Shown: positions 5,673 through 50,946 of the stretch, piece after piece | How the letters are laid out: each line of letters begins with the position of its first letter | Numbering within the stretch: position 1 is the first letter of the stretch | NCBI GenBank assembly: GCA_015069385.1 | Contig: SVIS01000003.1 | Location: 62,001-112,946 of the forward strand | Direction: 5' to 3' | Source: Clostridiales bacterium | GTDB taxonomy: Bacteria > Bacillota > Clostridia > Christensenellales > UBA1242 | Length of the DNA stretch: 50,946 nucleotides | Notes under the pieces: model-generated | Seen by the model: only the letters and a program-made list of their open reading frames with translations | The model's database searches: none | Told to the model about the DNA's origin: nothing | Translations under genes and position numbers: made by a program

Positions 5673-5673
5673 C

Positions 5674-5706: not shown

Positions 5707-5747
5707 TAACAATATTGCCTTATAGCATTTTGTTTTTATAATTAATC

Positions 5748-7196: not shown

Positions 7197-7207
7197 AATT
7201 TTTCTCC

Positions 7208-7726
7208 TTATTTATTTAAATCTTGGTTTTTAAAATATTCTCTTGCATCTGGAATTAAATAAGCATAATATTCTTGCATATTATTTCTGAGGTTTGTAGA
7301 ATGAACAGGAATTTTTTCCCTATCTATTGCTAAAAATTCATATTCTGGGAAATACTCCTCATTATATGCCCTATAGCCCTCATCGGCAATTTTTACATTA
7401 ACAAACGGAAATTGCTTTTTAAATTTTGCTGCCCAAATGTCTCTATCCTGTGGGTAAGGCTTTAGGTTCGTTTCATCAAAAATTGCAACTTTTACCTTTT
7501 TATTATTTTGATAATGCTTTTCAAACCAATGTTTTATAAGCAAAGCATCTAAATTTTCAAAGCCAGTACCATTTTTAATTTGATTATTTCTAATTTCATT
7601 TTTGGAAATTATTATCCAAACCTCATCTAAAATATTTGAAGCGTAGTCAATAACTGACAAATGTCCCAAATGTGGTGGGTAAAATTTTCCAACAAAAGCA
7701 CCTATTTTTTTATTTTGTTTTTTCAT
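7208..7726 (-). CDS. Nicotinamide/nicotinate-nucleotide adenylyltransferase (NadM-like cytidylyltransferase fold)
   Basis: (H/T)xGH nucleotidyltransferase motif 'GKFYPPHLGHLSVI'. 172 aa. Placed in an NAD-salvage operon. Confidence 0.6.
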   Translation of the reverse strand: MKKQNKKIGAFVGKFYPPHLGHLSVIDYASNILDEVWIIISKNEIRNNQIKNGTGFENLDALLIKHWFEKHYQNNKKVKVAIFDETNLKPYPQDRDIWAAKFKKQFPFVNVKIADEGYRAYNEEYFPEYEFLAIDREKIPVHSTNLRNNMQEYYAYLIPDAREYFKNQDLNK

Positions 7727-31670: not shown

Positions 31671-31895
31671 TTGAGAGCAAATGTTAATGCTTTAAACGAA
31701 ATAAAAGAAAGAATTGCAAACTTAAAGGGCAACTCAATTAACTTAAGCGTAAACCGAGGAAGAAAAAAAATTGATAAACTACAAGGTTTTATAGAAAACA
31801 TATACCCAAGTGTTTTTACTTTTATGACAGACTCAAAAGCCCGCGAAACTTTTTCATACTTTGATGTGCTTTGTGGCCTAGTAGTATTAGAATAA
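31671..31895 (+). CDS. veg: Veg protein (DUF1021)
   Basis: 'LKGNSINLSVNRGRKKIDKLQGFIENIYPSVFTF...SYFDVL' closely parallels B. subtilis Veg. Uses a TTG start after 'ggagg'. A terminator hairpin lies at about 31913-31945. Confidence 0.75.
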   Translation: MRANVNALNEIKERIANLKGNSINLSVNRGRKKIDKLQGFIENIYPSVFTFMTDSKARETFSYFDVLCGLVVLE

Positions 31896-31972
31896 AACAA
31901 TTTATGATATATAAAAAGGCACTTTAAAAGTGCCTTTTTTTAAATGAAACTTTAATTTTTAAATTATATTTG

Positions 31973-33301
31973 CTACGCAATTACTAGTTTAAATGCTGGA
32001 CGAACGCCACAGTCAATATCGTCGTATACACTGCTAAGGTCTATATCACCATCACTGTATACACACCTCACGCAAGAGTCGTTGTTTGATGGGGAACATG
32101 CGAGAGGCGAACGTAACCACCAACAATCGACAGACCCCTCTAATAGTTTTGCTCCACCTTGTGCCGTAGTAAATAGCCCAGTATATTCTAATGTGCTTAA
32201 TAGCCATAATGATTGATTTATAGTTGATTGTGAATATGGTGTTGCTATTATTCGTCCATTTGTGTCATCTTTGTCATATTCTTCACCACCAAGCGTTCTT
32301 GTAGTTATTTGGCTATATACTCCTGAATATTTCTCTGCACCAAAGTTATATTTTGTATATAATCCTGTTGTTCCGTTTACATAGTTTTGTATGGTTGAAT
32401 TGTTATAGTGAATACCATAGTCATTTGCTTCTGTACAATTTTCACTTTCATTAAACGCTATATAGTCACTATCTGTATTTTTTAATATGTATTCTGATAT
32501 AAAGTAGTATGTTCCTGCTGGAACGTTTGTAGAAGTTGTATCAGTAAAAGTATCTACTGCTACCATGCCATCTTCGCCTACTGCATCGCTGCCTGTTGCA
32601 CTATAGGCAAAAGCATACCAGCGAAGGGCTGTGCCGTTTTCATCTTCACCCATCTCTACATAGAGTTTTGTTTTTGCTTTTTCTGTTTCATCTACTAGGC
32701 CTGTCATTGCTCCAGTTTTTAATACCTTTCTATCAAATGTGTATTTTTTAAACTCCATATTGGCGGAGAAATTTGCTTCAAAGTCTCCTATTGTTTCTAT
32801 ATCTAACAATGTAAAGGTTATTGTTAAGTCTTCCTTTTGTGCATCTTTTGCTAGTGTAAATGATTGGGCTGACGTTACTCCGCTTATTGAGGTTATTTCC
32901 TCTGTGCTTGTTGTATCATATGCCACTGGGTTTGGTATGTTACATACTATTGTATAGTCTGACATGTTTGTTATTGTCATTTCTATTACTACTGTGTTTC
33001 CATCGTTTGCTAAGTCTGTAAATGCTAGGTCTGTTCCAAATGATTGGCTCTTTGTTATTTCCTCTGCTGTGCTTCCGCCAACTATTACACTACCCGTTGT
33101 TTCTGTTTTGGTTGTTGTGTTTGTTTTAGTATACGAGGTTACTGTATAGTCCACTTGTACTTTACAATTATGCGCTGTAAAGCCTATTGTTCCGGTGGCG
33201 GTAAGTGAGGCTTGTTTGGCTGCATATATGCCTATTGCCATGGCACATATGCATAAACATATTGCTACTATGTTTATTAGCCATTTATAGTTCTTCTTCA
33301 T
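31973..33301 (-). CDS. Variable surface protein, paralog A (signal peptide, variable Thr/Ser-rich middle, conserved C-terminal domain ending CGVRPAFKLVIA)
   Basis: The first 44 aa and the C-terminal block are identical to the ORF at 42718-44010. RBS 'aagaggag'. Confidence 0.6.
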   Translation of the reverse strand: MKKNYKWLINIVAICLCICAMAIGIYAAKQASLTATGTIGFTAHNCKVQVDYTVTSYTKTNTTTKTETTGSVIVGGSTAEEITKSQSFGTDLAFTDLANDGNTVVIEMTITNMSDYTIVCNIPNPVAYDTTSTEEITSISGVTSAQSFTLAKDAQKEDLTITFTLLDIETIGDFEANFSANMEFKKYTFDRKVLKTGAMTGLVDETEKAKTKLYVEMGEDENGTALRWYAFAYSATGSDAVGEDGMVAVDTFTDTTSTNVPAGTYYFISEYILKNTDSDYIAFNESENCTEANDYGIHYNNSTIQNYVNGTTGLYTKYNFGAEKYSGVYSQITTRTLGGEEYDKDDTNGRIIATPYSQSTINQSLWLLSTLEYTGLFTTAQGGAKLLEGSVDCWWLRSPLACSPSNNDSCVRCVYSDGDIDLSSVYDDIDCGVRPAFKLVIA

Positions 33302-33332
33302 TGTTTTCTCCTCTTTTTAAGATCATATTTGT

Positions 33333-33359
33333 ATTCTACCCCCCCCAGCCGATTATCAA
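33333..33359 (-). promoter_or_regulatory. Promoter of paralog A with a G8 tract inside the -35/-10 spacer (15-bp spacer, predicted weak/OFF state)
   Basis: On the gene strand: TTGATA-atcggctGGGGGGGG-TAGAAT. The C8 run is at 33339-33346 on the + strand. Confidence 0.65.
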
Positions 33360-33457
33360 CTAATTTTTTATGTTTTTAAAATAAAAATTTAATATCAATT
33401 ATTTTATAATTACATTAGTAAAATAAAAAACAACCGTATACAACGGTTGTCAATGTG

Positions 33458-33532
33458 TGGTACCCATATGCGGAATCGAACCGCAGACTTCGCCGTGAGA
33501 GGGCGACGTATTAACCTCTTTACCATATGGGC
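33458..33532 (-). tRNA. tRNA with anticodon CTC (Glu-type by anticodon)
   Basis: Folded by hand with acceptor GCCCATA/TATGGGT (G-U at 1-72), anticodon stem TCGCC/GGCGA, loop CTCTCAC, T-arm TGCGGTTCGATTCCGCA and an encoded CCA. A terminator hairpin 'caaccgtatacaacggttg' plus T-run follows. Confidence 0.6.
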
Positions 33533-33738
33533 ATATAGTTTCAATTTTGTGCGAACTATTTAATAGATCTTTTTTATTTGCCTTGGACTTGTGCTTTAAT
33601 TTTAACAAAAGCATATTAGCACACTTTTTATATTTTTGCAACAAAAATTTTTACATATAAATAACATCTAGTTTTTATAAATTTTTAAATTCAATTTTTA
33701 ACTACAAAAAAATAAGCACCAAATTTGGTGCTTTATTT

Positions 33739-34251
33739 TTATTCATCATCATCTTCGTCATCATAATCTTCATAGTCATCATCATCTTCGTAGTCGTCAA
33801 AGTCATCATCAGAGTCAGAGTCAAATTCTTCGCTTAAGTCTTCATCATCAACAATGCCATCAAGGTCATCATCTGGTAAAAGACCATCATCTAAATCATC
33901 ATCGTCATCATCAAGACCCAAGTCTTTAACACTTGACATATCGCCAAGTTCTTCACTATCAGAATCACCCATTTCATCATCTTCATCGCGATTTATATAT
34001 TGGCTCCACTCAGCATCTTCTTCGCCGTCATAATTAGGGTCATTTAAACGATCAGCATAACAACTAGGGCACATAATTTCATCTGGCTGAATATAGTTTG
34101 TTTTACAAATTGGGCAAAGTTCTAATTCAGATTCATCAACCTCTCCACCACCAACTTGCATTTCTTGTTTACAAACGCTGCAATACTTTTCATCTTTTGT
34201 AATATAATTAAGTTCACAACGTGGACATCTAATATAAGTAACTTTTGTCAT
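33739..34251 (-). CDS. Tandem zinc-ribbon protein with an extremely acidic (poly-Asp/Glu) C-terminal tail
   Basis: Two CxxC-N-CxxC ribbons ('CPRCELNY...CSVC', 'CPICKTNY...CPSC'), then about 90 residues that are more than 60% D/E. The start is taken at 'MTKVTY' after the RBS 'agagggga'. Confidence 0.5.
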   Translation of the reverse strand: MTKVTYIRCPRCELNYITKDEKYCSVCKQEMQVGGGEVDESELELCPICKTNYIQPDEIMCPSCYADRLNDPNYDGEEDAEWSQYINRDEDDEMGDSDSEELGDMSSVKDLGLDDDDDDLDDGLLPDDDLDGIVDDEDLSEEFDSDSDDDFDDYEDDDDYEDYDDEDDDE

Positions 34252-34349
34252 AAAATAATCCCCTCTAGGTAATTTAAAAAAATCAACCATAGTATACATA
34301 TGCAAATAATTTATGTCTAGCAATTTTAAGCATTTTTTTATTTTTTAAT

Positions 34350-35636
34350 TTAAATAATTTTAATTTCAACATCAACACTTATTTGAGTATTTTCAATTAT
34401 ATCTTCAAGTGTATTACCCATGCGTATGTATTCCATATAATCATTATAGTTATTTGCATAAAAAATGTCATTAAGTTTTAAAATATCAAGTTTTAGTCTT
34501 TTGCTTTCTTTAGTTGCAAGTGAAATTTGCTGTCTTATAACTTTCCCAATATCTCGTTTTATTTCTTCGCCCACTAAATCATAATTTATTTCTATGTTTT
34601 TTTCATCTATGTCAACAATTTCATCTATATCTAGCGAAATTAATATTTTAACTGACATAAAAGGCATTTTTTTATAAAAAAATGTTTCAGTAAATACTTT
34701 TTTATTTAAAATATCAAAATTAATACTTGCGCCTTTTAATCTTTTGTCGCTAGAAACTGGAACTAAAATTTCTTTAGGACTATAGTCACCGCTTAGCCAA
34801 TCAAGGCCCTGCGATACAAACTCATCTAGTACTACTTCTAGTTTACCATCTTTAAAAATAGCCACCTCGCCACGATTAGAAATAAATTTTGAGCCATCAT
34901 TGCTTGAGGCTTTATTTTCTGAACTACCACCCATGTTTGATTCATTTGTTTGGCTCTGAGCATTGCCCGATTGCTCTTTTTGTACTATGGCAGTTGAACT
35001 AACACCTTGCATTTGTTCACTAGTCAAATTAACAGCATTTATTTTAGAAATACCACTTTGGCTAAAATATCCTTTATAAAAAGAGTCTATGTTAGAATTA
35101 AGTGAAGTTGTGCTAGTTTCTTGCTGATGACACAAAATGTCGCTTAGTCTAAGTCCCGTTTCCTTTTTTAACTCAACACCGGTATTTAACATTTCTTCAA
35201 CACTACTAGAACAGTAAATTAATTGCACAATATTACGAATTTTGTTAGTTCTAATAAGTCTATCTAAAAGACTTGTTACATTTTGTTGTGATATAGTAGA
35301 ACCTATTAATACAAACCGAGTGTGCCCAAGTTTTAATTTACGTCCAAATATTAAATTTAAATTGGCAAAGGCATCGCCAACCGTTTTACCAGATGCTGAT
35401 AAAATTTTGCTATTTTCTGCCAAACTCTCACTTACCGAAGATATACTTATTTCTGAGTAAATAACAATATCGCTATTTTCATTCATGTCAATTCCAACAG
35501 CCGTAACAATTGCCGAGCGAAAAGAAATTGAATTACGATTTATTGCCGAAGGCAAAAGAGTAAAACAGATTATAGCAAAAATAAGCAAAACTGGAGATTT
35601 AAAAACACTTTTAAAAAACTTTTTAGCCTGTTTCAT
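34350..35636 (-). CDS. Spore germination protein, GerAC-like (Ger(x)C family)
   Basis: Third gene of a gerA-type operon with an N-terminal signal/anchor. Its size and position after gerAB match the Ger(x)C family. Confidence 0.55.
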   Translation of the reverse strand: MKQAKKFFKSVFKSPVLLIFAIICFTLLPSAINRNSISFRSAIVTAVGIDMNENSDIVIYSEISISSVSESLAENSKILSASGKTVGDAFANLNLIFGRKLKLGHTRFVLIGSTISQQNVTSLLDRLIRTNKIRNIVQLIYCSSSVEEMLNTGVELKKETGLRLSDILCHQQETSTTSLNSNIDSFYKGYFSQSGISKINAVNLTSEQMQGVSSTAIVQKEQSGNAQSQTNESNMGGSSENKASSNDGSKFISNRGEVAIFKDGKLEVVLDEFVSQGLDWLSGDYSPKEILVPVSSDKRLKGASINFDILNKKVFTETFFYKKMPFMSVKILISLDIDEIVDIDEKNIEINYDLVGEEIKRDIGKVIRQQISLATKESKRLKLDILKLNDIFYANNYNDYMEYIRMGNTLEDIIENTQISVDVEIKII

Positions 35637-36726
35637 GTTTTTTCTCCTTTTTAAGCCAAGTAAAAATTGCAAGCATAAGTGGAACCAAAATTAAAATTGC
35701 TGTTGCAAAATAACAAAGAGTGTTTTCTGCAAAAGCCACATACTTTAAATAGTCATTTAAATATAAAAACTCAGCAGCAAGCAGCATTAAGTTTATAAAT
35801 CCATACGAAATAACTGTATTTTTAAAATTAAATACCTTTTTAAAACATTCATTGGCACAATACATAAATATTGACCCCTGTAAATATATATTAAATAAAA
35901 ATACTACAATTGCAAAAATATCCATATGCCAGCCACTTGCTGTCCCTATTGCATATTGCACAACGTCACTTATTAAATTTGTGTGAAAAAGTGATGTTTC
36001 TTGATATAACAAATAATACATAGCACTAACTACAACAAGAACAACAACGCTAATAATAAATGGAATAAAAATTTGCTTTAGTTTGCCTTTTTTTATTTCA
36101 ATTTTATCCATAAATATTAATAGTGCAAAAAGGTCACCTGTCCAAAAAGAAAGCCTAAAAAGTGAAGAAAAAAATCCCGAAAATCCTTCACGTGTTAATG
36201 CACCCATACCAAAATTAACTTCTGGCACAACAGCAAATGCAATTGCTAAAACAAAACAAATAATTATTACAGGAAAGAAAAACTCACAAGTACGAGCCAT
36301 TGTTCTAATTCCGCTATAAGCCATTGCTGTAATTATTGGTAGCAAACAAATAAACAAATTAAATAAACTAAATTCTTCATCTACAACATCTTTAATAAAT
36401 GTAAAACTATCACTAATAATTAATAGTATTTTAAAAAAGAAAAAAGCAAAAAAGGCAAAATAAATTATTTTAGTAACTATAACACCTAAACGCTTGCAAA
36501 GTATTGCGTAAAAATCTTCATTAGGAAACTTTTTTTTAACCCAAACAAGCAACAATAAAAACAAAAAGTTGAGCGCCATTACAAAAATAATACTTAAAAT
36601 TCCGCCCGAGCCATTATATTCATACAAAAGCGAAGGAAGAGTGGTTAATTTTAATGTAAAAAGAAGTATTCCTGCAATTATACCGGTTTGATGAGCCGAA
36701 ACTGTCTTGCCGTTATTCATTACCAT
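35623..36726 (-). CDS. Spore germination protein, GerAB-like (spore permease family, about 10 TM)
   Basis: 367-aa polytopic membrane protein. Overlaps gerAA by 14 bp. Confidence 0.65.
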   Translation of the reverse strand: MVMNNGKTVSAHQTGIIAGILLFTLKLTTLPSLLYEYNGSGGILSIIFVMALNFLFLLLLVWVKKKFPNEDFYAILCKRLGVIVTKIIYFAFFAFFFFKILLIISDSFTFIKDVVDEEFSLFNLFICLLPIITAMAYSGIRTMARTCEFFFPVIIICFVLAIAFAVVPEVNFGMGALTREGFSGFFSSLFRLSFWTGDLFALLIFMDKIEIKKGKLKQIFIPFIISVVVLVVVSAMYYLLYQETSLFHTNLISDVVQYAIGTASGWHMDIFAIVVFLFNIYLQGSIFMYCANECFKKVFNFKNTVISYGFINLMLLAAEFLYLNDYLKYVAFAENTLCYFATAILILVPLMLAIFTWLKKEKKHETG

Positions 36727-38140
36727 CTGCCTCCTTTTGCCTTATTTTATTTGCGTTAGAAATTGCAACTGGTCGTTTTTTCATATCATAAAGCGGCCGT
36801 TTAAAAATACCATCTTTTAAATCATCTTTAATTTGCGGTGCAAAAGGTGCTAAATATGGTGTACCATAAGCATTTAATGTGTTTAAATAATTTATTATAT
36901 ATACAACGCCACCAATTATACCAAGCAAACCAACTGTTGCTCCTAAAACTACAAAAACAGCCCTTAAAACAGTTAATTGCGATGCCTGAGAAGGAATTGT
37001 ATAAATAGCCATAATACTAACAGCAACAATAATAACTCCCGGCGGAGAAATTAAACCTGCCTTAACACCGGTATCACCAAGCACCAACGCCCCCACAATA
37101 GATGTTGCAAGACCTAAATATTGAGGCAAACGCAAACTTACTTCATATAAAATTTGAAATAAAAGCAAAATAAACATAATTTCTAGCACTGGAGTAAAAG
37201 GTAAATTTCGTGTGGAGTTAGAAATAATAATTATGTAGTTTAATGGTAATGTTGTGTAACTATAAAGCCTAATACTTAAATATAATCCTGGAACTATTGT
37301 AGCAAGCGCTATGCCTATTGTTCTTATAATTCTAATAAAGTTTACAAATACATAATTTGTATAATAATCATTACTACTTTGCAGGTCTTCAAAAACCATA
37401 TATGGAACTGTTAAAACAATAGGGGAACCATCTACCAATATTGCAATTCTGCCCTCTAAAACCTTAGCAACAACAATATCTGGCTTTTCTTGAAACCCCA
37501 CCTGTTCGAACATAGAATATGGTCGTTTTTTTAAAAAGTTGGCTATATAAAACGAGTCAACAACGCCATCTATATCAATCGCCTTTAATTTAGAGGTTAT
37601 TTCTTTTACAATTGATTTATTTGCTATGTTTTTTAAATATAAAACACTAATTTTAGTATTTGTTTCTCTACCAACATTTAAGTTTTCTATTTTTAAATTT
37701 TTAGTTGGAAGTCGCCGTCTTAAAAGTGAAATATTTGTTGCAATAGCCTCTACAAACCCCTCACGTGGTCCATATATATTTGGTGAGGTAGGTGGCTCAC
37801 TTGGCATTCTTGTTGGGAATTTTTCTAAATCTACCGACAAATATTTCTCTTTAAAAACAACAACAACTTGGTTTTTTAAAATATATTCAACAATTTGATT
37901 TCGCTTAATTGGCGCAATATCGGCAGCACGAATAATTTTTGTTTGTAAAGCAATAAAATCAAATTGGTTTTTATATGAAATAATTGGCTCTATAATTTCT
38001 CTTGCAATTGCAGTTTTGTCTACCATGCTTTTTAAAAACATTAATAAAACTTCGCCCGAATTTGTTGTAACTGTGCGACAAATAAAATCTAAATTATTAG
38101 ACAATTCTTTTTTTACTTCTTCTTGCAACAAAAAAGACAT
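36713..38140 (-). CDS. Spore germination protein, GerAA-like (GerA family)
   Basis: 475 aa with a soluble N-domain plus a C-terminal 5-TM region, the typical GerA architecture. First gene of the operon. Confidence 0.7.
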   Translation of the reverse strand: MSFLLQEEVKKELSNNLDFICRTVTTNSGEVLLMFLKSMVDKTAIAREIIEPIISYKNQFDFIALQTKIIRAADIAPIKRNQIVEYILKNQVVVVFKEKYLSVDLEKFPTRMPSEPPTSPNIYGPREGFVEAIATNISLLRRRLPTKNLKIENLNVGRETNTKISVLYLKNIANKSIVKEITSKLKAIDIDGVVDSFYIANFLKKRPYSMFEQVGFQEKPDIVVAKVLEGRIAILVDGSPIVLTVPYMVFEDLQSSNDYYTNYVFVNFIRIIRTIGIALATIVPGLYLSIRLYSYTTLPLNYIIIISNSTRNLPFTPVLEIMFILLLFQILYEVSLRLPQYLGLATSIVGALVLGDTGVKAGLISPPGVIIVAVSIMAIYTIPSQASQLTVLRAVFVVLGATVGLLGIIGGVVYIINYLNTLNAYGTPYLAPFAPQIKDDLKDGIFKRPLYDMKKRPVAISNANKIRQKEADGNE

Positions 38141-38196
38141 ACTACTTAAACTCCTATTTTTACAAGTAGTATGTCTTTATTTAATTAAATATATTC

Positions 38197-39873
38197 TTAA
38201 GATAATTGTACTGTAACTGCAGATGAACCTGTTTGATATTGATTTACAGAAACAGCAGCAATTGTCATGCTTAAAACTTCTGCTTCAAAAAAATCTGTAA
38301 AATCTGCCGTTAATTTTAACCTTGACAACATGCCTTCTGACAATTGTTCTTGAATAAGTTCGCTTGTATATAAAACATGCTCACTTAATGAATAATTGCC
38401 ATCGTTTAATGTTACAACAACTTTAAACTTTTCAGGAACATAAAAGTAAGAAAACACTTCAAAAGTCAACAAATTTGTTTGAGAATTAAAATTTGCATTG
38501 TTTGGTGTTTGCAATGTGTCGTAATATTCGTAAGTATATGTATTGGTAAAATTGCTATTTACATAATAAGTACCCTCGGTTGCAACTGCCTCTATTGTTA
38601 TATTATATTCGCCAGGACCATACACATTTAAAGTGGTTAAATCAAAAGACATTAAACCTTCGCCTTGGGCAAGTTCAATATATTCAACACTATCGGTATC
38701 TGAATTTACCATATAATATACTTTATAGTAAGCAGCGTTTTCTATTACGTTCCAAGTTAAAACTTCATCTTGACAGAATACAACCGGTGTGTCTAATTTT
38801 ATATAATTTACAATTTGTTTTTCTTCTGAATAATCACTATGTGCTTTTTGGGTTGCCCCAAGAGCCCTTACTTTAATTGTAAACTCACCAGGTTGACTAA
38901 AATAATTTGCCATTTCAACAATATTAGAAGTACTTGTAAATACTGTTTGAGTTTGACCGTGAATTACAACAACCTCATATTTTTGTACATTTTCAATTTT
39001 ATCAATAACTAAAGTTGTGCCATAAGAACGTTCAAATATTTCAAAGTTAGGTGTAAGTAATTTTGTATTAATTTTAATATTATGTACTACTAAAGCAACA
39101 ATTATGGCAATTAATACAGCAGCAACACCGCAAACAACAGGTATTAATATTTTTTTGTTAGCCTTTTTTAACCATGATTTTAATTTACATTCTTTTTTTT
39201 CTTTTGGCTGTTTTACCTTTTTTTCTTTTTTAGGTTTTTCTTCACTTTGCTCTTGTTCTTGATCGCTATTCATTTCCTCTTGAGGCTGCTCTACTAAATC
39301 AACTTGTTCTTCCTCATCTTCAGACAAAGAATTTACAACGTTTTCTTCAGATTGATCATTTTGCTCTTGTGCTTGCTCTGTTTTTTTCTTTCTTCCTCTT
39401 TTTTTAGGCTTTTCTTCGTTCGTTACTAGTTCTTCTGTGTTTTCATTAGAAGCAAGAACATCTTCTGCCGTTTCTTGTTCTAAAACATTTTCACTAGCCT
39501 CTTCTGATGGTGTGTTTTCTTCGCTTAACTCTTGCGTATTTTGATTTTCTTCAGTATTTAAAACTTCTTCCTTATTTTTTTTCTTTTTTTCTTTTTTAGG
39601 TTTTTCTTCTTTAACCTTTTTTTCTTTTACCTTTTTATCCTTAGCAGGTGCTTTTTCATTGGTTGGTTGCTCAGGCAAAGAATCTTCAGTTGAAAAAGTT
39701 TCTAAATCTGAATTGGCATTAACATTTTGCTCTGGTTTTGCATCTTGGTTTGTTGGTTTCTCCTCTTTTTTAGAAGTGGTTGAACCAAATAAACTATCTC
39801 CCGATTGTTGCAAAAAATCAAAACTATCGTCAAATAGATTATTATCATCAAAATCATTAAACAAATTTGCCAT
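38197..39873 (-). CDS. Membrane-anchored protein with a long K/E-rich disordered N-terminal region and a C-terminal extracytoplasmic domain
   Basis: About 225 low-complexity residues with KEKK repeats, a single TM helix 'ILIPVVCGVAAVLIAIIVALVV', then about 300 aa of beta-rich domain. Confidence 0.4.
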   Translation of the reverse strand: MANLFNDFDDNNLFDDSFDFLQQSGDSLFGSTTSKKEEKPTNQDAKPEQNVNANSDLETFSTEDSLPEQPTNEKAPAKDKKVKEKKVKEEKPKKEKKKKNKEEVLNTEENQNTQELSEENTPSEEASENVLEQETAEDVLASNENTEELVTNEEKPKKRGRKKKTEQAQEQNDQSEENVVNSLSEDEEEQVDLVEQPQEEMNSDQEQEQSEEKPKKEKKVKQPKEKKECKLKSWLKKANKKILIPVVCGVAAVLIAIIVALVVHNIKINTKLLTPNFEIFERSYGTTLVIDKIENVQKYEVVVIHGQTQTVFTSTSNIVEMANYFSQPGEFTIKVRALGATQKAHSDYSEEKQIVNYIKLDTPVVFCQDEVLTWNVIENAAYYKVYYMVNSDTDSVEYIELAQGEGLMSFDLTTLNVYGPGEYNITIEAVATEGTYYVNSNFTNTYTYEYYDTLQTPNNANFNSQTNLLTFEVFSYFYVPEKFKVVVTLNDGNYSLSEHVLYTSELIQEQLSEGMLSRLKLTADFTDFFEAEVLSMTIAAVSVNQYQTGSSAVTVQLS

Positions 39874-40074
39874 ATTATTCTCCTTCGGCGATAATTAATT
39901 TTGCAAAAAATGCAATAATTAAAAATATTTTAATAAAACCTACTTTTTTTGTCAAATTGATTTAATATTATTAAAATATATTTTATAACTATTATTTATA
40001 TAGTTTACTCCAAAATATATATTTTTATAAAAGGTTATTAAAAAAACATTTGCTTTAGAGCAAATGCTTTCTAA

Positions 40075-40275
40075 TTATTTATTAGCCTCGTTTAATTTAT
40101 TTAATAATAATTCAATATCTATTTCATGAACTTCGGCGGCTTCTTCTAATGTTTCAGAAAGTGCACAAGGACAAGAAAAACAATGCATACCAAACCCCAT
40201 TAAAATATCTTTTAAATTTTCATTTGCAGACAATACTTCTGCAATTGTCATATCTTTATTAAATGCTTTTTTCAT
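40075..40275 (-). CDS. DUF1858-domain small protein (hybrid-cluster-protein-associated redox-like domain)
   Basis: 66 aa, 'GMHCFSCPCA'. A terminator hairpin 'catttgctttagagcaaatg' lies at 40047-40066. Confidence 0.55.
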   Translation of the reverse strand: MKKAFNKDMTIAEVLSANENLKDILMGFGMHCFSCPCALSETLEEAAEVHEIDIELLLNKLNEANK

Positions 40276-40289
40276 ATATTTACCTCTTT

Positions 40290-41420
40290 TTATTCAACAA
40301 ATTCTTCACCACATAAAGAGCAATGTTTTGCCAAAATATTATTTTCGCCACCACAATTTAAACACCTTTTTGTAGTTGTACTATGAGTATATAACCTATC
40401 TAAATTTAAGTCAACAAAAGTTTTTTCTTTCTTTTTAGGTTCAACACTTTTAATTTGTATTTCACCTTGTGTTTTTTCTTCAATTTTAAAATTGCCAAAA
40501 GGAACATATTCATCAATTGGCTCACTATTTATAGAACTTTGTTCTTCATTATTTTGTTCGTTTAATTTTTCATTATACTTAATTTCTTGATTATTTACTA
40601 ATACCTTATTTTCTTCAAAAACATTTTCGTTTAACTCTTCATTTTGGGAAGTATTTTCAGCCACCGTTTCAGTTTGTGCCACAATTTCTTGTTCTTGCTG
40701 TTTTAACTTTTCTTCTTGCGCTTTTATTGCATTATCACTTGCCTCTTGATATTTGCTTGGCAATTTATATTTATATATTCTAACATCACAAAGTTCAAGG
40801 CCTGCAGTATTAAATAGTTTAGAAATAGCCAACTTTAATTTTTCAGCAATTATAGGATTGTTATTTATAACATCATCTAACATAAAATTATTTTTTTCTA
40901 AAACATCTACTATTAAATCATTTACCCATGCCTCTATTAGTTCCTCAGCCTCACCTGTTTTAATAAAGTCATATTCATTTAAAAGAGATTGCATAAATTC
41001 TTGAACATTGCCAACTTTATATGAATAAACTCCAAAAACATGTGCTTTAAAAATGCCATATGCTTTGGTACCCATTTCTACTTTTCTATATGTTTTAAAT
41101 TTGCCCGCATGTAAATTTTTATCAACAAAATATTGCTCTGCTGAAAATTTATCTTTTTGTTTGCCATCTTGAATTTTATCTATGCCAAATTTTCTACACA
41201 TATAAGGTAAGTTTGCAAAGTTTAAAAAATATTCCCCCGTTTCAAACTTATCTGCTACTTTACCATTTTTACCAAGTACAAAAAAATATCCATCTGGCAC
41301 AACAAGTTTTGCATTAATTTTTACCACACCTCTAGCACCAGAGTAATTTGTAACCAAACACTTTAAGTCCTCTTGTTTTGGACATATGTCATATTTGTTT
41401 TTATTCCAAAATAATCCCAT
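40290..41420 (-). CDS. Hypothetical protein with a C-terminal zinc ribbon, possibly SPFH-like (COG4260-type)
   Basis: C-terminal 'CLNCGGEN...CSLCGEEF'. A central coiled-coil/low-complexity region rich in Q, E and N. The N-terminus starts 'MGLFW'. Confidence 0.35.
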   Translation of the reverse strand: MGLFWNKNKYDICPKQEDLKCLVTNYSGARGVVKINAKLVVPDGYFFVLGKNGKVADKFETGEYFLNFANLPYMCRKFGIDKIQDGKQKDKFSAEQYFVDKNLHAGKFKTYRKVEMGTKAYGIFKAHVFGVYSYKVGNVQEFMQSLLNEYDFIKTGEAEELIEAWVNDLIVDVLEKNNFMLDDVINNNPIIAEKLKLAISKLFNTAGLELCDVRIYKYKLPSKYQEASDNAIKAQEEKLKQQEQEIVAQTETVAENTSQNEELNENVFEENKVLVNNQEIKYNEKLNEQNNEEQSSINSEPIDEYVPFGNFKIEEKTQGEIQIKSVEPKKKEKTFVDLNLDRLYTHSTTTKRCLNCGGENNILAKHCSLCGEEFVE

Positions 41421-41630
41421 AATTTAATAGTATCATATTAAAATTTAATTTGCAATTCAACAATAGTAAATTTGTCATACTTTTGTCAGTAAACGCAAAG
41501 CAAAAAATATATTTACATTTTCTAAACAAAAACAATTTAATTACTGATAAATGTATGACAAACAACAATAAAAATTTTTTTTGCTTTATTTAATATTTTT
41601 TTTATGTTACCATATATAAAAGGAAAAAAT

Positions 41631-42623
41631 ATGGAATATATAATATCATACAATTCACAATCAAAAAATTTATGTTTTTTAGAATTAAAAAAATTAAATT
41701 GTAATTTTAAAGAAATTGATAGTTTGTCTAACGAACAAAGCCTTATAAACCTTGATATAGATAATGAAAAATTAATTAAAATTATTAATACAAAACCTAT
41801 AATTTTTTTAAGACATATTATTAAAATTACTAAAAAATTTAATAAAAATTACAATAAAACTGATTTTTTTAACACAATTTTAAATAATTTAAGTAAAAAT
41901 TTAACATTTAGTATTCAATTTTTAAGTAATATTAACAAACAAGATTGCTCAATTAACATTCAAACTTTGGCTGATGAATTAGAAAAGAATAACTATATTT
42001 TAAATGTAAAACAACCAGAGCAAATTATATCAATTTACGAAACACAAAATACCATTATGCTTGGTTTTGGCAACGAAAATTTAAACCTTTCTACCTTTAA
42101 AGGTGGAGCGCCCCATTTTTCTAAAAAACAAGAATTTGTGTCAAGAGCAGAATATAAATTATTAGAAGCAACAAATTTAACTAATTTAGAATTATCTAAA
42201 ATTTCATCTGCTGCTGACCTTGGTGCAGCACCAGGCGGCTGGACAAAAGTACTTGCAAGTAAAAATATTAATGTTCACTCAATAGACCCCGCTCACCTAA
42301 GCCCAGAAATAAAAAACATAAAAAATGTTAAACACTTTCAAATGCTAACTGAAGAGTTTTTGCAAAAATTTAATTTCACATACGATTTAATAGTAAATGA
42401 TATGAAAATGGACATATCGCTTAGTACCGACATAATACTTTCATTCTACCCTCGCCTTAATACAAACGGCTATGTTATTATGACATTTAAATTAGCAAAA
42501 AATTTTACATACTCACAAATCATTAATCAACTAAAACGCCTAACCGAAAAATATAAACTTGTTCTTGCAAGACAACTTTTTCATAACAGAAGCGAAATAA
42601 CAGTTGTGTTAAAAAAATTATAA
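41631..42623 (+). CDS. RlmM/FtsJ-like SAM-dependent RNA 2'-O-methyltransferase
   Basis: 'AADLGAAPGGWTKVL' matches the RrmJ/RlmM SAM-binding motif. An N-terminal THUMP-like region is present. The start is taken at 'MEYIIS'. Confidence 0.55.
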   Translation: MEYIISYNSQSKNLCFLELKKLNCNFKEIDSLSNEQSLINLDIDNEKLIKIINTKPIIFLRHIIKITKKFNKNYNKTDFFNTILNNLSKNLTFSIQFLSNINKQDCSINIQTLADELEKNNYILNVKQPEQIISIYETQNTIMLGFGNENLNLSTFKGGAPHFSKKQEFVSRAEYKLLEATNLTNLELSKISSAADLGAAPGGWTKVLASKNINVHSIDPAHLSPEIKNIKNVKHFQMLTEEFLQKFNFTYDLIVNDMKMDISLSTDIILSFYPRLNTNGYVIMTFKLAKNFTYSQIINQLKRLTEKYKLVLARQLFHNRSEITVVLKKL

Positions 42624-42717
42624 ATAACTTTATAATATGTTTTTTACTTTCAATAAAATAAGCCCCAAAAGTCAAACCACTTTTGAGGCTTCTTTTAATC
42701 TTATATAATTTTTTTTA

Positions 42718-44010
42718 TTATGCTATTACTAGTTTAAAAGCTGGACGAACACCACAATATAAATAAGAGTTTTTTGGTCCACTGAAATTAAGATTACCAG
42801 ACTCCGTCACAACCGATATTCGAGATTCAATACCAGCAGTTTGAGTTGTGCGTAACCACCAACTTTTATTAGAACCACCAAGCGAGCTTGCCTTACCTTG
42901 CACCGATGAGAATAGACCGCGATATTCTGATGTGCTTAATAGCCATAAAGATTGATCTATAGTTGATTGTGTTGTTGGGTTTGCTATGGTTTCATAATTT
43001 GAACCAAACTCTATATATTGCTCACCACCAAGCGTTCTTGTAGTTATTTGCCCATACACTCCTGAATATTTGTCTGCACTAAAGTTATATTTTGTATATA
43101 ACCCTGTTGTACCATTTACATAATTTTGTACGGTTGAATTGTTGTAATTTACGCTACCTGTTGAATCAAAATCAATACTGTCACTATCAATATTTTTTAG
43201 TACATATTCTGATATAAAGTAGTATGTACCTGCTGGAACTGATGTAGAATCTGTTGCTGTAAACTCATCTACTGCTACCATGCCATTTGCACCTACTTCT
43301 TCGCTGCCTGTTGCACTATAGGCAAAAGCATACCAGCGAAGGGCTGTGCCGTTTTCATCTTCACCCATCTCTACATAGAGTTTTGTTTTTGCGTTTTCTG
43401 TTGTATCTGGTAAGCCACTCATTGCTCCAGTTTTTAATGCACTTCTATCAAATGTATATTTTTTAAACTCTAGGTTTGCATCAAATATTGCTGATATTTC
43501 TGAGGCGGTTTCTATGTCTGTTAAAGTGAATTTTATTGTTATATCTTTATACTCACCTTTTGTTGATAATACAAATGATTGGTGTGAGGTTACTCCTTGT
43601 ATTGTTGTTATTTGGGTTGTTGTACTATTTGAATCATACGCTACTGGGTTTGGTATGTTACATAGTACTGGAAAGTCTGAGTCGCTTGTTATTTTTAAGT
43701 TTATTGTTATTGTATTTCCTTCTTCTACCAAATCACTAAAGTACATTGCTGGAAGAGGTAGTTCTTCTCCTTCTTCATCTACTAGTGTTTCTGCTATTGT
43801 TGCTTCTGTTCCTGTTAGTTTTGTGGTGAAATCTTCATCATATGCATCTATTGTTCCTGACACCTTTACCTTACAGCCATGCGCTGTAAAGCCTATTGTT
43901 CCGGTGGCAGTAAGTGAGGCTTGTTTTGCTGCATATATGCCTATTGCCATGGCACATATGCATAAACATATTGCTACTATGTTTATTAGCCATTTATAGT
44001 TCTTTTTCAT
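42718..44010 (-). CDS. Variable surface protein, paralog B
   Basis: 430 aa. Its N-terminal 44 aa and the C-terminal 'CGVRPAFKLVIA' are identical to paralog A, and the middle has diverged. Confidence 0.6.
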   Translation of the reverse strand: MKKNYKWLINIVAICLCICAMAIGIYAAKQASLTATGTIGFTAHGCKVKVSGTIDAYDEDFTTKLTGTEATIAETLVDEEGEELPLPAMYFSDLVEEGNTITINLKITSDSDFPVLCNIPNPVAYDSNSTTTQITTIQGVTSHQSFVLSTKGEYKDITIKFTLTDIETASEISAIFDANLEFKKYTFDRSALKTGAMSGLPDTTENAKTKLYVEMGEDENGTALRWYAFAYSATGSEEVGANGMVAVDEFTATDSTSVPAGTYYFISEYVLKNIDSDSIDFDSTGSVNYNNSTVQNYVNGTTGLYTKYNFSADKYSGVYGQITTRTLGGEQYIEFGSNYETIANPTTQSTIDQSLWLLSTSEYRGLFSSVQGKASSLGGSNKSWWLRTTQTAGIESRISVVTESGNLNFSGPKNSYLYCGVRPAFKLVIA

Positions 44011-44041
44011 ATATCTTTCTCCTTTTTAATGATATATTTGT

Positions 44042-44070
44042 ATTCTACCCCCCCCCCAGCCGGTTGTCAA
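44042..44070 (-). promoter_or_regulatory. Promoter of paralog B with a G10 tract in the spacer (consensus -35 TTGACA, 17-bp spacer, -10 TAGAAT; predicted ON state)
   Basis: On the gene strand: TTGACA-accggctGGGGGGGGGG-TAGAAT. The C10 run is at 44048-44057. Confidence 0.7.
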
Positions 44071-44167
44071 GCAAATTTAAATAGGTTTTTAATAATTTTA
44101 AAATGATACTTTTTTACATAAAGATACAAAAAATACCAATACTAATTTTAAAGGTGAGGTATTTTGT

Positions 44168-44947
44168 ATGGCACATTCTTATAAAGGAGCAATTTCATTT
44201 GGCTTGGTATATATTCCAATTACCTTAAGTGTAAGTGTAAAACAAAATGATATTGGTTTTAATATGCTCGATAAAAACACTATGAGTAGAGTAAAATATA
44301 AAAAAACTTGCGTGGATTGTAAAAACAAAGAGGTTAAAAATGAAGACATTGTAAAGGGTTATCAATATCAAAAGGGCAAATATGTAATTTTTACTGATAA
44401 AGATTTTGAAAAAATAAAATCACCAAAAGATAAAAACATTGTAATTGAGCAATTTGTTAACTTAGAAGAAATTGACCCAATATATTTTGACAAAGCATAT
44501 TATGTTAAACCATCTGGTGCTGATAAAGCATTTAATGTTTTACTTGCAGCCATGGAAAAAGAAAAGAAAGCCGGCATTGCCAAAACAGTTCTCGGTACTA
44601 AAGAAACACTGTTTTTAATTAGAGCAAAAGATGGCAAAATGTATGCAAGCACAATGTATTTTAAAGATGAAATTCAAAAATGCGAAGAAGTTAAAAAAAG
44701 CAAGATTGATAAAAAAGAATTAGATCTTGCAATAAATTTGATTAACCAAATGACTTCAAAATTCGCTCCTGAAAAATTTAAAGATGAATATACCGAAAAA
44801 ATAAAAAAAGCAATTAAGCGAAAAATTTCTGGAAACGATATTGTGGCAACATCAGAAAAGACTGAACAAAACAATGTTATTAACTTAATGGACGCTCTTC
44901 AAAAAAGTTTGTCTGGCACAAAACTTAAAGCAGGAGCAAGCAAATGA
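44168..44947 (+). CDS. ku: Ku protein (NHEJ DNA-end-binding)
   Basis: N-terminus 'YKGAISFGLVYIPITL' is the bacterial Ku signature. 259 aa. Confidence 0.85.
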   Translation: MAHSYKGAISFGLVYIPITLSVSVKQNDIGFNMLDKNTMSRVKYKKTCVDCKNKEVKNEDIVKGYQYQKGKYVIFTDKDFEKIKSPKDKNIVIEQFVNLEEIDPIYFDKAYYVKPSGADKAFNVLLAAMEKEKKAGIAKTVLGTKETLFLIRAKDGKMYASTMYFKDEIQKCEEVKKSKIDKKELDLAINLINQMTSKFAPEKFKDEYTEKIKKAIKRKISGNDIVATSEKTEQNNVINLMDALQKSLSGTKLKAGASK

Positions 44948-46374
44948 GTTTAGAAAAATACAACGAAAAAAGAGATTTTTCTCAAACTAAAGAACCAAAA
45001 GGCATTACAAAAAAAACACAATCTAAAAGTCTTAAATTTGTAATTCAGTTTCATAGAGCAACCACAGACCACTACGACCTACGTCTAGAATATAATGGGG
45101 TACTTCTTAGTTGGGCTGTGCCAAAAGGGCTTTCCACTAATCCAAATGTTAAACGGCTTGCTGTTATGGTTGAAGAACACCCAATAAAATATGCCGATTT
45201 TGAGGGTGTAATTCCTAAAGGTAATTATGGTGCTGGTGTTGTTGAAATTTTTGATAGTGGAACTTACGAGCAAACTGAAGACTTTAAGTTAGGTTTAAAA
45301 AACGGCAATTTGAAATTTTTCCTTAATGGAAACAAATTAAAGGGTTTGTGGACATTAGTAAAAACCGACAAAAACAACTGGCTTGTTATAAAAATTAATG
45401 ATAAATTTACAAAAAAAGAAGAAAAAACCTCAAAAAAACCTAAAAATCCATTCAAAAATGTTCCTGTAATGTTGGCAACACTATCTAATAATATACCAAC
45501 AGGAAAAGATTGGTTATTTGAAATAAAGTATGATGGCTATAGAATCACAGCATACAAAAGCGACAAAAGTGTGCAACTTTTTTCTCGTAATGGAAATGAT
45601 TATTCTAAAAAATTTTCATCTATTGTTGAAAGCGTAAGCCAAATTGCAAAAGATATTCCCTTTGTTTTAGATGGTGAAGTTGTTAGTTTTAATAAAGATG
45701 GTGTTTCTGATTTTTCTCTCTTGCAACAAAATATTAAAAGCAGTAATGATAATTTTAGTTATGTAGTATTTGACCTGCTTGCTCTAAACGGAAAAGACCT
45801 TCGCAATACTCCCCTAATAGAAAGAAAAGAATATTTGAAAAATATACTCGAAGGCACAGATAATAAAATAATTTATAGCACTCATGTTATTGGCAATGGT
45901 AAAAAATGTTTTAACTTAGCAAAAAAATTAAATTTAGAAGGAATTGTTGCTAAAAAAATCAACTCAACATATGTTGGTAATCGCAATGAAGATTGGCTAA
46001 AAATTAAATGTTATAAGCGCCAAGAATTTATAATTATTGGTTTTACTACAACTGAAAAAAACAAAATATTAAGTGCAATTTTGGTGGGTTTTTATAAAGA
46101 CAACGCACTAATTTTTGCCGGTAAAGTAGGCACCGGTTTTTCAGAAAATATGAAAAAAGAACTTGTTTCTAAGTTTAAAAAAATTGAAACAAATACTTGC
46201 CCACTTGCAGAAAAAATTGATATAAAAGCCAACTGGTTAAAGCCTAAACTGATTGCTGAAATAAAGTATGCTGAATTTACCAAAGACGGACTCCTTCGTC
46301 AGCCAAGTTTTGTTGGCTTAAGAGAAGATAAAAAACCTAGTAATGTTGTTTTGGAGGAAAAAGGTGGAAGTTAA
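44944..46374 (+). CDS. ligD: ATP-dependent DNA ligase LigD (phosphoesterase domain plus ligase domain)
   Basis: PE-domain 'FVIQFHRATTDHYDLRLE' followed by the ligase motif I 'KYDGYR'. Overlaps ku by 4 bp. Confidence 0.85.
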   Translation: MSLEKYNEKRDFSQTKEPKGITKKTQSKSLKFVIQFHRATTDHYDLRLEYNGVLLSWAVPKGLSTNPNVKRLAVMVEEHPIKYADFEGVIPKGNYGAGVVEIFDSGTYEQTEDFKLGLKNGNLKFFLNGNKLKGLWTLVKTDKNNWLVIKINDKFTKKEEKTSKKPKNPFKNVPVMLATLSNNIPTGKDWLFEIKYDGYRITAYKSDKSVQLFSRNGNDYSKKFSSIVESVSQIAKDIPFVLDGEVVSFNKDGVSDFSLLQQNIKSSNDNFSYVVFDLLALNGKDLRNTPLIERKEYLKNILEGTDNKIIYSTHVIGNGKKCFNLAKKLNLEGIVAKKINSTYVGNRNEDWLKIKCYKRQEFIIIGFTTTEKNKILSAILVGFYKDNALIFAGKVGTGFSENMKKELVSKFKKIETNTCPLAEKIDIKANWLKPKLIAEIKYAEFTKDGLLRQPSFVGLREDKKPSNVVLEEKGGS

Positions 46375-47209
46375 AATTGATGGAATTACAATAACTAATC
46401 CTGACAAAATAATATATCCTAAAGAAAAAATAACAAAACTTGATGTAGTTAAATATTACAAAACAGTTGCAAAATATATGCTTCCATATTTAAAAAATAG
46501 AGTACTTTGTGCCATTAGGTGTCATGGCGGAATTAATGAAGAATGTTTTTTTAAAAAACACCCCACTACCGAAACGGAAAATGTAAATACTATAAAAATA
46601 AATGGCGAAGAATATTTTTATATAAAAACCGAAAAAGACATAATTTATCAGGCACAAATGGGCACGCTAGAATTTCATACTTGGGGAAGCAAAATAAAAT
46701 CAATTAATAACCCTGACTTTATGATTTTTGACTTAGACCCAGCAACAAATGTTAATTTACAAAAATTAAGGCAAGGTGTTTTGCTCGTTAAAGAAATTCT
46801 AGACAATTTAAATTTAAAATCGTATTTAAAAACAAGCGGTGGAAAAGGTTATCATATTGTTGTGCCTTTTGCAAAATGCAAAAATTGGCAAAGTTTTAAA
46901 CATTTTTCACATAATATTGCTCTTTTATGTGAAAAATTACACCCTACTCTTTTTACAACTTCTATTCGTAAAAAAGACCGAACTGGCAAAATTTTTGTTG
47001 ATTACTTAAGAAACGAAAAAGGCTCAACCTGTGTTTGTGCATATTCGCTTAGGGCGCGAATTGGTGCCCCTGTATCGTTGCCAATTTCATGGCAAAATTT
47101 AAATAAGATTACACCAAACGAAATTAATATGCAAACTGCACTTAAACTAATTAACACTCAAAATCCTTGGAAAAATATTTATGAAACGAATCAAAGTTTA
47201 AATAAATAA
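46364..47209 (+). CDS. LigD polymerase/primase domain protein (separate Pol subunit)
   Basis: LigD-Pol-like sequence. The likely GTG start at 46364 follows 'ggagg'; the track ATG at 46343 overlaps the ligD 3' end. A bidirectional terminator lies at about 47215-47250. Confidence 0.7.
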   Translation: MEVKIDGITITNPDKIIYPKEKITKLDVVKYYKTVAKYMLPYLKNRVLCAIRCHGGINEECFFKKHPTTETENVNTIKINGEEYFYIKTEKDIIYQAQMGTLEFHTWGSKIKSINNPDFMIFDLDPATNVNLQKLRQGVLLVKEILDNLNLKSYLKTSGGKGYHIVVPFAKCKNWQSFKHFSHNIALLCEKLHPTLFTTSIRKKDRTGKIFVDYLRNEKGSTCVCAYSLRARIGAPVSLPISWQNLNKITPNEINMQTALKLINTQNPWKNIYETNQSLNK

Positions 47210-50273: not shown

Positions 50274-50946
50274 TTAACCTTGATAGTTGTATACTTTAGT
50301 AGCATTTGTAAGAGGGGCGTTGCTTGTGTCAATAGTTATAGCGTTCCATTCTTCTTCTGTGCCAGTATAATTTACTGTAGTTAATAAAGGACAATTCATA
50401 AATGCATTTGTTTTAATTTCTGTCAAACTATTTGAAAGAGTGAGATTTTCTAAATTAACAGAACTTGAAAAGCAAGAGGTTGATATAATTGTTATTCCAC
50501 GTCCAATTACAAGTTTAGTAATTTTAAAGTTAGTACAAGCATACTCGCCAATGCTCGTAACACTATCTGGTATTATAAATGTTCCTGTTATTCCACTACA
50601 ACCATTAAATGCATACATTCCAATACTAGTTAATGTTGAAGGTAGGGTTATACTAGTAATTCCGGTGCAACCATAAAATGAAGATTTTGCTCCTGGGTTT
50701 GTGTCTGGAATACTTACAACTGTACATTCTTCACCATTAAAAATAACTTTTGATGGAATTATTAAATCGCCAGTTGGTTTATTAGATGAGTTTGCTACCA
50801 CGCTTAATGTTTTTGCATCTGCATCTAAAACCGAGAATGTTAGATTGGTATAAGTAGAAGCATCTAATACTTCTTCTTCGACTACTGGCTCAGTGCTTTG
50901 CAATTGAATATTAAAACCATAGTTGCCGGTTACTGATTCATTATCA
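50274..50946 (-). CDS. BspA-type leucine-rich-repeat (LRR_5) surface protein, 5'-partial (runs off the window end)
   Basis: Repeats such as 'CTGITSITLPSTLTSIGMYAFNGCSGIT' and 'IPDSVTSIGEYAC'. The reading frame stays open to 50946. Confidence 0.6.
   Translation of the reverse strand, partial: DNESVTGNYGFNIQLQSTEPVVEEEVLDASTYTNLTFSVLDADAKTLSVVANSSNKPTGDLIIPSKVIFNGEECTVVSIPDTNPGAKSSFYGCTGITSITLPSTLTSIGMYAFNGCSGITGTFIIPDSVTSIGEYACTNFKITKLVIGRGITIISTSCFSSSVNLENLTLSNSLTEIKTNAFMNCPLLTTVNYTGTEEEWNAITIDTSNAPLTNATKVYNYQG

Follow-up and report, generated by a model that had tools for sequence, protein, structure and literature searches.

Two paralogs around a gerA operon of a Clostridiales bacterium as probable members of a recombining, phase-variable family of lectin-like surface proteins

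The 50,946-nucleotide stretch of Clostridiales DNA analysed here (contig SVIS01000003.1 of assembly GCA_015069385.1; hereafter the window), which is the terminal 50.9 kb of the JGI contig Ga0318466_10003779, carries two paralogous genes, A and B, in a setting of housekeeping genes such as those for ThrRS, NAD salvage, GidA/GidB and Ku/LigD. As judged from its DNA sequence, the locus is best taken as part of a recombining family of lectin-like surface proteins whose expression is probably phase-variable. Paralog A (31973-33301, minus strand) is a complete open reading frame (ORF) of 442 residues, with a signal peptide or anchor at aa 1-28, an Ig-like β-sandwich at 33-186 and a DUF6273 domain at 195-442. 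Paralog B (42718-44010, minus strand), also complete, has 430 residues and the same domain layout, and is identical to the NCBI protein E7376_01670 (P0005) of this metagenome-assembled genome (MAG). The two proteins share 61% identity (272/446, BLASTP), and no further copy lies within the window. Homology extends from about 95 nt before the ATG to about 20 nt beyond the stop codon (31951-33384 for A, 42694-44095 for B), each copy being a self-contained gene unit of about 1.43 kb that includes its own promoter. Both units stand in direct orientation, with a start-to-start distance of 10,709-10,745 nt, and bracket a segment of 9,416 nt (33302-42717) that contains tRNA-Glu(CTC) (33458-33532), the genes gerAC/gerAB/gerAA (34350-38140), which encode GerAC, GerAB and GerAA, and genes for a 66-aa DUF1858 protein, an SPFH/Band7 protein and an FtsJ-like methyltransferase. 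An earlier reading of the sequence alone (the sequence-only reading) had described two surface-protein paralogs as direct repeats around such a segment, and the ORFs, their orientation and spacing, and the gene content in between are all borne out. The identical two-copy arrangement is fixed in three independent assemblies.

That reading could not assign the C-terminal domain to any characterised family. A profile search does so, as Pfam DUF6273 (PF19789; E 7.8e-9) matches A with 40.9 bits and B with 36.1 bits, both above the gathering cut-off of 23.5, covering positions 6-170 and 2-170, respectively, of the 172 in the profile; the only match to NF053819 is weak, sub-threshold and N-terminal. 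An AlphaFold (AF2) model built from a 21-sequence family alignment (A1) has a pLDDT of 76.7 and a pTM of 0.81, and consists of an N-terminal hydrophobic or transmembrane (TM) helix (3-28), a β-sandwich (33-186) and an α/β domain (195-442). The N-terminal helix may be cleaved between IYA and AKQ or may serve as an anchor; the proteins are presumably displayed at the cell surface and bind a ligand there. The DUF6273 domain has been solved in the IgA protease of Thomasclavelia ramosa, where it shows a decorated C-type-lectin-like core of unknown function (PMC12237041), and the C-terminal domain of A and B has this C-type-lectin-like α/β fold. In the T. ramosa enzyme the domain is N-terminal (PDB 9QA6; PMC12237041, PMC12402451), an accessory module of a sortase-anchored metallopeptidase that is dispensable for activity, whereas in A and B, proteins of 430-440 aa without a peptidase, it forms the C-terminal effector domain. 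In phages, DUF6273 is often targeted by diversity-generating retroelements (DGRs), whose variable region lies at the C-terminus of the domain (PMC10743442, PMC11792537). The best viral match (BFVD) is a phage DUF6273 protein. Motifs such as WWLR and GVRPAF are conserved throughout the family (alignment A1).

Comparison of A with B reveals a patchwork of identity. The leader, aa 1-44 (A 33170-33301; B 43879-44010; minus strand), is the hallmark of the family and is identical in both proteins, with 3 synonymous differences within the first 40 codons; at the other end the last 12 residues, CGVRPAFKLVIA, are the same in A and B. The near-perfect identity that had been noticed at the 5' and 3' ends thus holds, except that the string ttactagtttaaa.gctggacgaac, taken for downstream DNA, is really the plus-strand reading of the VRPAFKLV codons. 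The leader is followed by a divergent block, aa 45-175 (A 32777-33169; B 43492-43878; minus strand), which lies in the β-sandwich domain and in which sliding nucleotide identity between A and B is 48-79%. Here B is 86-100% identical to two paralogs encoded elsewhere, P0003 (contig L006) and P0006 (contig L050), and only 44-80% identical to A. The best-conserved part of A and B is aa 178-340, with a sliding nucleotide identity of 80-100%, interrupted by an 8-codon indel near codon 290. It contains a tract of 92 nt with 100% identity (A 32586-32677, codons 209-239; B 43301-43392; minus strand), a length that none of 20,000 column shuffles reached, even when shuffling was confined to the conserved core. 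Codons 340-357 and 378-430 are diverged again, with identity down to 33%. They include a hypervariable block, aa 398-433 (A 32003-32110; B counterpart 42757-42849; minus strand), which is bounded by WWLRS and CGVRPAF near the C-terminus of DUF6273, in which A and B show 33-60% nucleotide identity and which occupies the position of the DGR variable regions in other DUF6273 proteins. The mosaic conservation reported earlier is therefore real but had been misplaced: the central 300 or so codons, said to have diverged, hold the core that is better conserved than the blocks flanking it, and divergence sits in aa 45-175 and aa 340-430.

A codon alignment of four paralogs (A, B, P0003 and P0006) shows how this patchwork is distributed. 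In the leader, A, B and P0006 cluster against P0003; over aa 45-185 it is B, P0003 and P0006 (86-100%) that cluster against A; at codons 216-238 A equals B (100%), with P0003 at 78%; over aa 241-279 B goes with P0003 (96%), and over aa 280-345 and 404-411 A does so. Site patterns switch 130 times along the alignment, against 243.5 +/- 8.9 expected, and none of 10,000 permutations gave a number as low (triplet clustering). Synonymous divergence (pS) follows the same course, since its block values are 0.10/0.50/0.14/0.00/0.21/0.39/0.40/0.61 for A and B and 0.41/0.16/0.28/0.41/0.07/0.38/0.50/0.60 for B and P0003, the blocks of low pS being different ones in the two pairs. Because the nearest paralog shifts from block to block, and at synonymous sites too, these patterns indicate exchange between paralogs, in the form of putative recombination or gene conversion that involves four or more dispersed copies. 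Gene conversion or cassette recombination had also been the sequence-only reading, and the blockwise mosaic among paralogs agrees with it; silent-donor cassettes do not, as the copies examined are complete ORFs with their own promoter, and among them (A, B, P0003, P0006 and others) no promoterless donor was found, apart from one 5'-truncated copy. The latter, L005:1-1404 (JGI 3300019378), matches A at its positions 185-1404, from about codon 105 to past the stop codon, with 99.8% identity and 2 single-nucleotide polymorphisms (SNPs), and its first 184 nt are unrelated AT-rich non-coding DNA. Found in another sample, it may represent a copy of A that has lost its 5' part and promoter, the product of an insertion or rearrangement, or a chimera.

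A and B are part of a larger family. The MAG of the window encodes nine paralogs named as E7376_ proteins, B among them, in addition to A, and the eight besides B are 64-29% identical to A; it thus holds at least 10 copies of the DUF6273 type, plus relatives of the leucine-rich repeat (LRR) type, several LRR_5 proteins sharing just the N-terminal module of the family. Those carrying this module in the MAG are P0016, P0020, P0026 and P0027, and P0020 lacks a poly-G promoter; a BspA-type LRR_5 protein is also encoded at the window edge (50274-50903, minus strand; also L002:2-673). A search of contigs for the leader pattern, which covered related MAGs and not that of the window, found 43 loci in four related Clostridia MAGs, namely 11 in RGIG4566 (roe deer), 15 in HGM11346 and 16 in HGM11367 (both human gut) and 1 in the fourth; leader-bearing genes number 11-17 in each of three of these MAGs. 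Matches to A number just 336 among 1.84 billion cluster representatives, and many of these cover no more than residues 1 to about 120-200; the family is thus small and lineage-restricted, and is defined by an N-terminal module joined to varying C-termini.

The strongest argument for a variation system comes from a feature on which the earlier note had not remarked, a poly-G tract within the spacer of each promoter. The promoter of A (33333-33359, minus strand) consists of a -35 box TTGATA (33359-33354), ATCGGCT, a run of eight G (33346-33339; C8 on the plus strand) and a -10 box TAGAAT (33338-33333), which gives a sub-optimal spacer of 15 nt. In the promoter of B (44042-44070, minus strand), TTGACA is followed by ACCGGCT, a run of ten G (44057-44048) and TAGAAT, and the spacer of 17 nt is the optimum. 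An independent promoter scan scored the promoter of B at 11/12 with a 17-nt spacer, and did not call that of A, the 15-nt spacer of which falls outside the 16-18 nt range of the scan. A promoter of this sigma-70/sigma-A type lies about 31 nt before the ATG in A, B, P0003, P0006 and the gene at L050:1682, the last three of which, on other contigs, have G9 and a 16-nt spacer. Tract lengths are therefore G8, G9, G9, G9 and G10 in five promoters of one genome whose flanks are almost identical. In the four related MAGs, 37 of 51 family gene starts are preceded by TTGACA-N4-7-G(6-10)-N0-3-TAnnnT, with G lengths of 8 (5 genes), 9 (29) and 10 (2) and one interrupted tract (L012), and with spacers of 15 nt (7 genes), 16 nt (27) and 17 nt (3); HGM11367 alone has G lengths of 8-10. 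Of the 42 runs of G>=7 in 467 kb, 37 occur in this promoter context, and the bases beside the run vary among MAGs (ATCGGCT, ACTTCGC, ACGC) with the run itself and the 15-17-nt spacer being kept. Runs of more than five G or C in the window, which has 30% GC, are limited to the A and B promoter tracts plus one C9. An artefact of two-colour sequencing chemistry was considered for the poly-G runs and rejected, given their internal and exact placement and their presence in MAGs from four independent projects. On sequence grounds, a poly-G tract placed between the two promoter boxes corresponds to the layout that underlies slipped-strand phase variation of transcription. In the sequenced state, A, with 15 nt, is predicted to be weak or off and B, with 17 nt, to be on; switching would presumably occur at high frequency and change expression.

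Several further observations concern these promoters. The C9 of the window (14304-14312, plus strand) falls within the 3'-terminal part of a peptidase M16-like gene (12824-14347), in codons reading ..TPPQ.., and on the minus strand it forms TTGTGA-CTGCTT-G9-TAGATT, similar to a family promoter, with no family gene after it; it may be what is left of a promoter, or a coding tract prone to frameshifts. Many family loci in related MAGs lie at contig ends, and contig L003 (JGI 3300032167, positions 1-41) starts inside the poly-G run of the B promoter (GGGGTAGAAT...); assemblies apparently tend to break at the conserved leader and the G runs. In many family genes of RGIG4566 (loci L014, L017, L026, L038 and L041) the motif GTGAAAA/AGTAAAA is reiterated (e.g. 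AAGTGAAAAGTGAAAAAGTAAAAGTGAAGAGTGAAAA) about 20-170 nt upstream of the ATG, in long 5' leaders between the poly-G promoter and the start codon. Finally, a Spirochaetia MAG of 47-49% GC, whose EF-G is 99% identical to that of 'MAG: Spirochaetia bacterium', has the exact promoter TTGACA-ATCGGCT-G9/G10-TAGAAT in front of lipoprotein genes (sites L051:3532-3551, L052:3172-3191, L053:431-450 and L053:7278-7297). L053 carries two promoter copies, one with G9 and one with G10, and its gene at 5059-7233 encodes Flg_new, LRR_5 and FGE-sulfatase (C-type-lectin-fold) domains. The identity of the 7-nt spacer part was imposed by the search pattern; the -10 box, the G length and the downstream surface-protein gene were not. 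Common descent of the spirochaete and Clostridia promoters is not claimed, as a collection of that size should contain a given 20-mer a few times by chance.

One contig bears on what the two direct copies may do to the locus. The protein P0002 is a chimera with an N-terminal part from A and a C-terminal part from B, and contig L001 (JGI 3300018475, 4,919 nt) reads as the window from 33677 down to 32586 and then from 43300 down to 39474; over these 4,919 nt the one mismatch is a SNP at 40814. The switch from A to B occurs inside the 92-nt identical tract. Because its upstream flank (tRNA-Glu) is that of A and its downstream flank (FtsJ, Band7, DUF1858) that of B, L001 is not a case of gene conversion. 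On the plus strand 43300 is joined back to 32586, a junction that may stem from tandem duplication of a 10,715-bp unit or from its excised circle, or may be an assembler chimera; a deletion would not give rise to it. Neither of the two protein databases searched contains the reciprocal hybrid of the deletion type (B-5'/A-3'), and an exact 59-nt probe from the 92-nt tract had no match in a metagenome contig collection that excludes the source samples. The direct repeats had been expected to mediate deletion or duplication of the segment between them, visible as copy-number variation or recombination junctions in related genomes; a duplication- or circle-type junction, possibly chimeric, is indeed present in this one contig, but no deletion-type hybrid is on record and the three independent assemblies keep two copies. 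Hybrid genes deposited in protein databases, P0002 for example, may have arisen through assembly.

The remaining features of the neighborhood can be described briefly. An inverted repeat at 31894-31958, 3' of A, is likely a terminator common to A and the convergent veg gene, and a terminator-like hairpin (42660-42691, minus strand) lies 3' of B. Between gerAC and tRNA-Glu, a double-zinc-ribbon protein (33739-34323, minus strand) has an extremely acidic Asp/Glu tail that derives from GAT/GAA-type repeats at 33740-33871. Directly upstream of gerAA, a 558-aa protein (38197-39873, minus strand) matches no Pfam or NCBIfam family and has a long Lys/Glu-rich low-complexity N-terminal half, arising from imperfect direct repeats at 39178-39674, then a TM segment and a β-rich C-terminal half. 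Genes for Ku, LigD ligase and LigD primase-polymerase (44168-47209, plus strand) lie immediately upstream of the B promoter and diverge from B. Ku/LigD genes for non-homologous end joining are typical of spore formers.

The model favored here, held with moderate confidence, is that A and B are two members of a lineage-restricted, recombining lectin-like family with slippage-prone promoters. Each protein consists of a conserved Sec signal peptide or anchor, an Ig-like β-sandwich and a presumably ligand-binding DUF6273 domain, which varies most at its C-terminal face. Slipped-strand mispairing would alter the length of the G run, giving spacers of 15, 16 or 17 nt, and this change would raise or lower transcription of each paralog independently of the others. 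Homologous recombination or gene conversion among the dispersed paralogs would in turn shuffle blocks of domain and sub-domain size, which would produce both the mosaic and the 92-nt tract, so that slippage and recombination together may vary the lectin-like binding specificities on display. As a by-product, crossover between the two direct copies could duplicate or excise the 10.7-kb unit that contains the gerA genes. A number of results weigh against this model. The PHI test on four sequences is not significant (83/500). The length of the G run is constant at each locus, with G8 for A in five assemblies and G10 for B in both that cover it, which is a weak test of heterogeneity since the assemblies compared are nearly clonal consensus sequences. 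The predominance of G9, found in 29/37 promoters and in 10/10 of those of RGIG4566, would fit a fixed functional element equally well. The structural model reaches only moderate confidence, as its pLDDT shows; neither A nor B has an LPXTG, SLH or other C-terminal anchor, both ending in ...CGVRPAFKLVIA; and the junction in L001 falls within an exact repeat shorter than typical reads, in a short contig of probably low coverage.

Two of the alternatives concern parts of this model and are each held to be possible, on the doubtful side. It may be argued that the G run belongs to the promoter as a constant functional element, such as a GC-rich spacer required by a family-specific regulator or by promoter geometry, and that its length differences are rare evolutionary changes without a role in population heterogeneity; the modal G9 and the equal length at the same locus in every assembly compared speak for this. 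However, near-identical promoters in one genome carry G8, G9 and G10, indicating that the tract changes by single units, and the bases flanking it differ among MAGs where the run and spacer persist, one tract even being interrupted (L012). Moreover, tracts of 8-10 G are intrinsically prone to slippage, as established for instance for porA (PMC3639595). As for the direct repeats, it is conceivable, though tentative, that they actively rearrange the locus, and that L001 is a real duplication or circle junction of the 10,715-bp unit (32586-43300), generated by RecA-type crossover in the 92-nt tract and giving rise to P0002 as a third, chimeric paralog. L001 matches the A locus up to the switch and the B locus beyond it, switches exactly in the longest identical tract, combines flanks of different loci, and comes from a sample other than those of the parental contigs. 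Nevertheless, it is a single contig of 4.9 kb, its 92-nt repeat is shorter than a read or a large k-mer, which makes a low-coverage mis-join plausible, and the three other assemblies show only the parental arrangement.

The mosaic itself can be explained in other ways, which appear less probable still. An old duplication followed by ordinary divergence under unequal constraint, with the leader and fold core kept and the surface loops free to change, would require no exchange at all, and it would account for the coincidence of the conserved blocks with the signal peptide and the DUF6273 fold core and for the family-wide WWLR and GVRPAF motifs. Unequal constraint is insufficient, though, because synonymous sites show the same mosaic (A-B pS 0.00-0.61); in addition, the closest relative changes by block and the 92-nt perfect run exceeds every shuffle, so this explanation is considered improbable. 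Even less credence is given to the idea that a DGR writes the hypervariable C-terminal block, as happens in phage and Faecalibacterium DUF6273 proteins, which share the fold and likewise have their variable block at the C-terminus of DUF6273. Neither the window ORFs of >=280 aa nor the Pfam lists of neighboring loci include a reverse transcriptase, and no second copy of any DUF6273 3' end resembling a template repeat was found in about 0.5 Mb of loci, the whole genome not having been searched. With only 33% identity in the block, A and B could not share a template, and each is unchanged across assemblies. An origin from mobile elements or integron-like cassettes was rejected, as the larger window ORFs encode neither an integrase nor a transposase and homology stops at the promoter and just past the stop codon without boundary repeats.

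The system is best read as one of a known kind, a phase-variable and recombining surface family, in an unusual host group. In porA of Neisseria meningitidis, the homopolymer is placed between the -35 and -10 boxes. This poly-G/poly-C promoter tract (PMC3639595) makes porA, and also opc, comparable to A and B, which likewise have a G/C homopolymer in the sigma-70-type promoter of a surface protein; in porA its length sets spacer and expression. In contrast, porA and opc encode single outer-membrane proteins of a Gram-negative pathogen whose switching has been demonstrated experimentally, whereas the present family has 10-17 copies in a spore-forming gut Firmicute and its switching is a prediction from the sequence. 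The vlp genes of Mycoplasma hyorhinis reportedly have a poly-A tract in the -35/-10 spacer and switch ON and OFF independently. They too are a surface multigene family with a highly conserved promoter and signal-peptide region, diverged mature regions and a homopolymer in the spacer, but they are clustered lipoprotein genes with internal tandem repeats, and the family described here is dispersed among housekeeping genes, combines a β-sandwich with a lectin-like domain and uses poly-G. In Treponema pallidum, poly-G tracts lie upstream of several tpr genes, and tprK undergoes gene conversion. The tpr family thus resembles that of A and B in joining upstream poly-G, on which transcription depends there, with recombination between surface paralogs; it differs in that tprK has dedicated promoterless donor cassettes, none of which were found here, and in that the protein folds are unrelated. 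The variable proteins of DGRs (phage tentaclins, Faecalibacterium prophage targets, TvpA, Mtd; PMC10743442, PMC11792537) share the Pfam domain family or fold and the variable C-terminal face with A and B, but here neither a reverse transcriptase nor a template repeat was found in the loci searched, and variation lies between fixed paralogs and not within one gene. With cassette-type antigenic variation (pilE/pilS, tprK, vlsE) the family has in common the segmental mosaic between paralogs, and lacks, among the copies examined and apart from the 5'-truncated L005, the single expression site and the promoterless donors.

Much is known about surface repertoires under phase variation in pathogens, among them Neisseria, Mycoplasma and Treponema, and the switches described so far in gut Firmicutes are mostly invertible promoters. 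A broader proposal, put forward here only tentatively, is that gut anaerobes of at least two phyla place poly-G-spacer promoters before whole repertoires of surface proteins with a C-type-lectin fold or LRRs, the examples being this Clostridia lineage and the Spirochaetia MAG with its Flg_new/LRR_5/FGE-sulfatase lipoprotein genes. Each cell might then express a stochastic subset of the repertoire and recombination might renew it, as a contingency system of spore-forming commensals that offers a retroelement-free alternative to DGRs. If the favored model is correct, a family of 10-17 lectin-like genes would be gated, gene by gene, by slippage-prone promoters, and DUF6273, otherwise mainly a target of DGRs, would gain a second route of diversification. 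Uncultured spore-forming commensals would thereby use contingency loci to vary their adhesion or to evade phage, IgA and other host factors.

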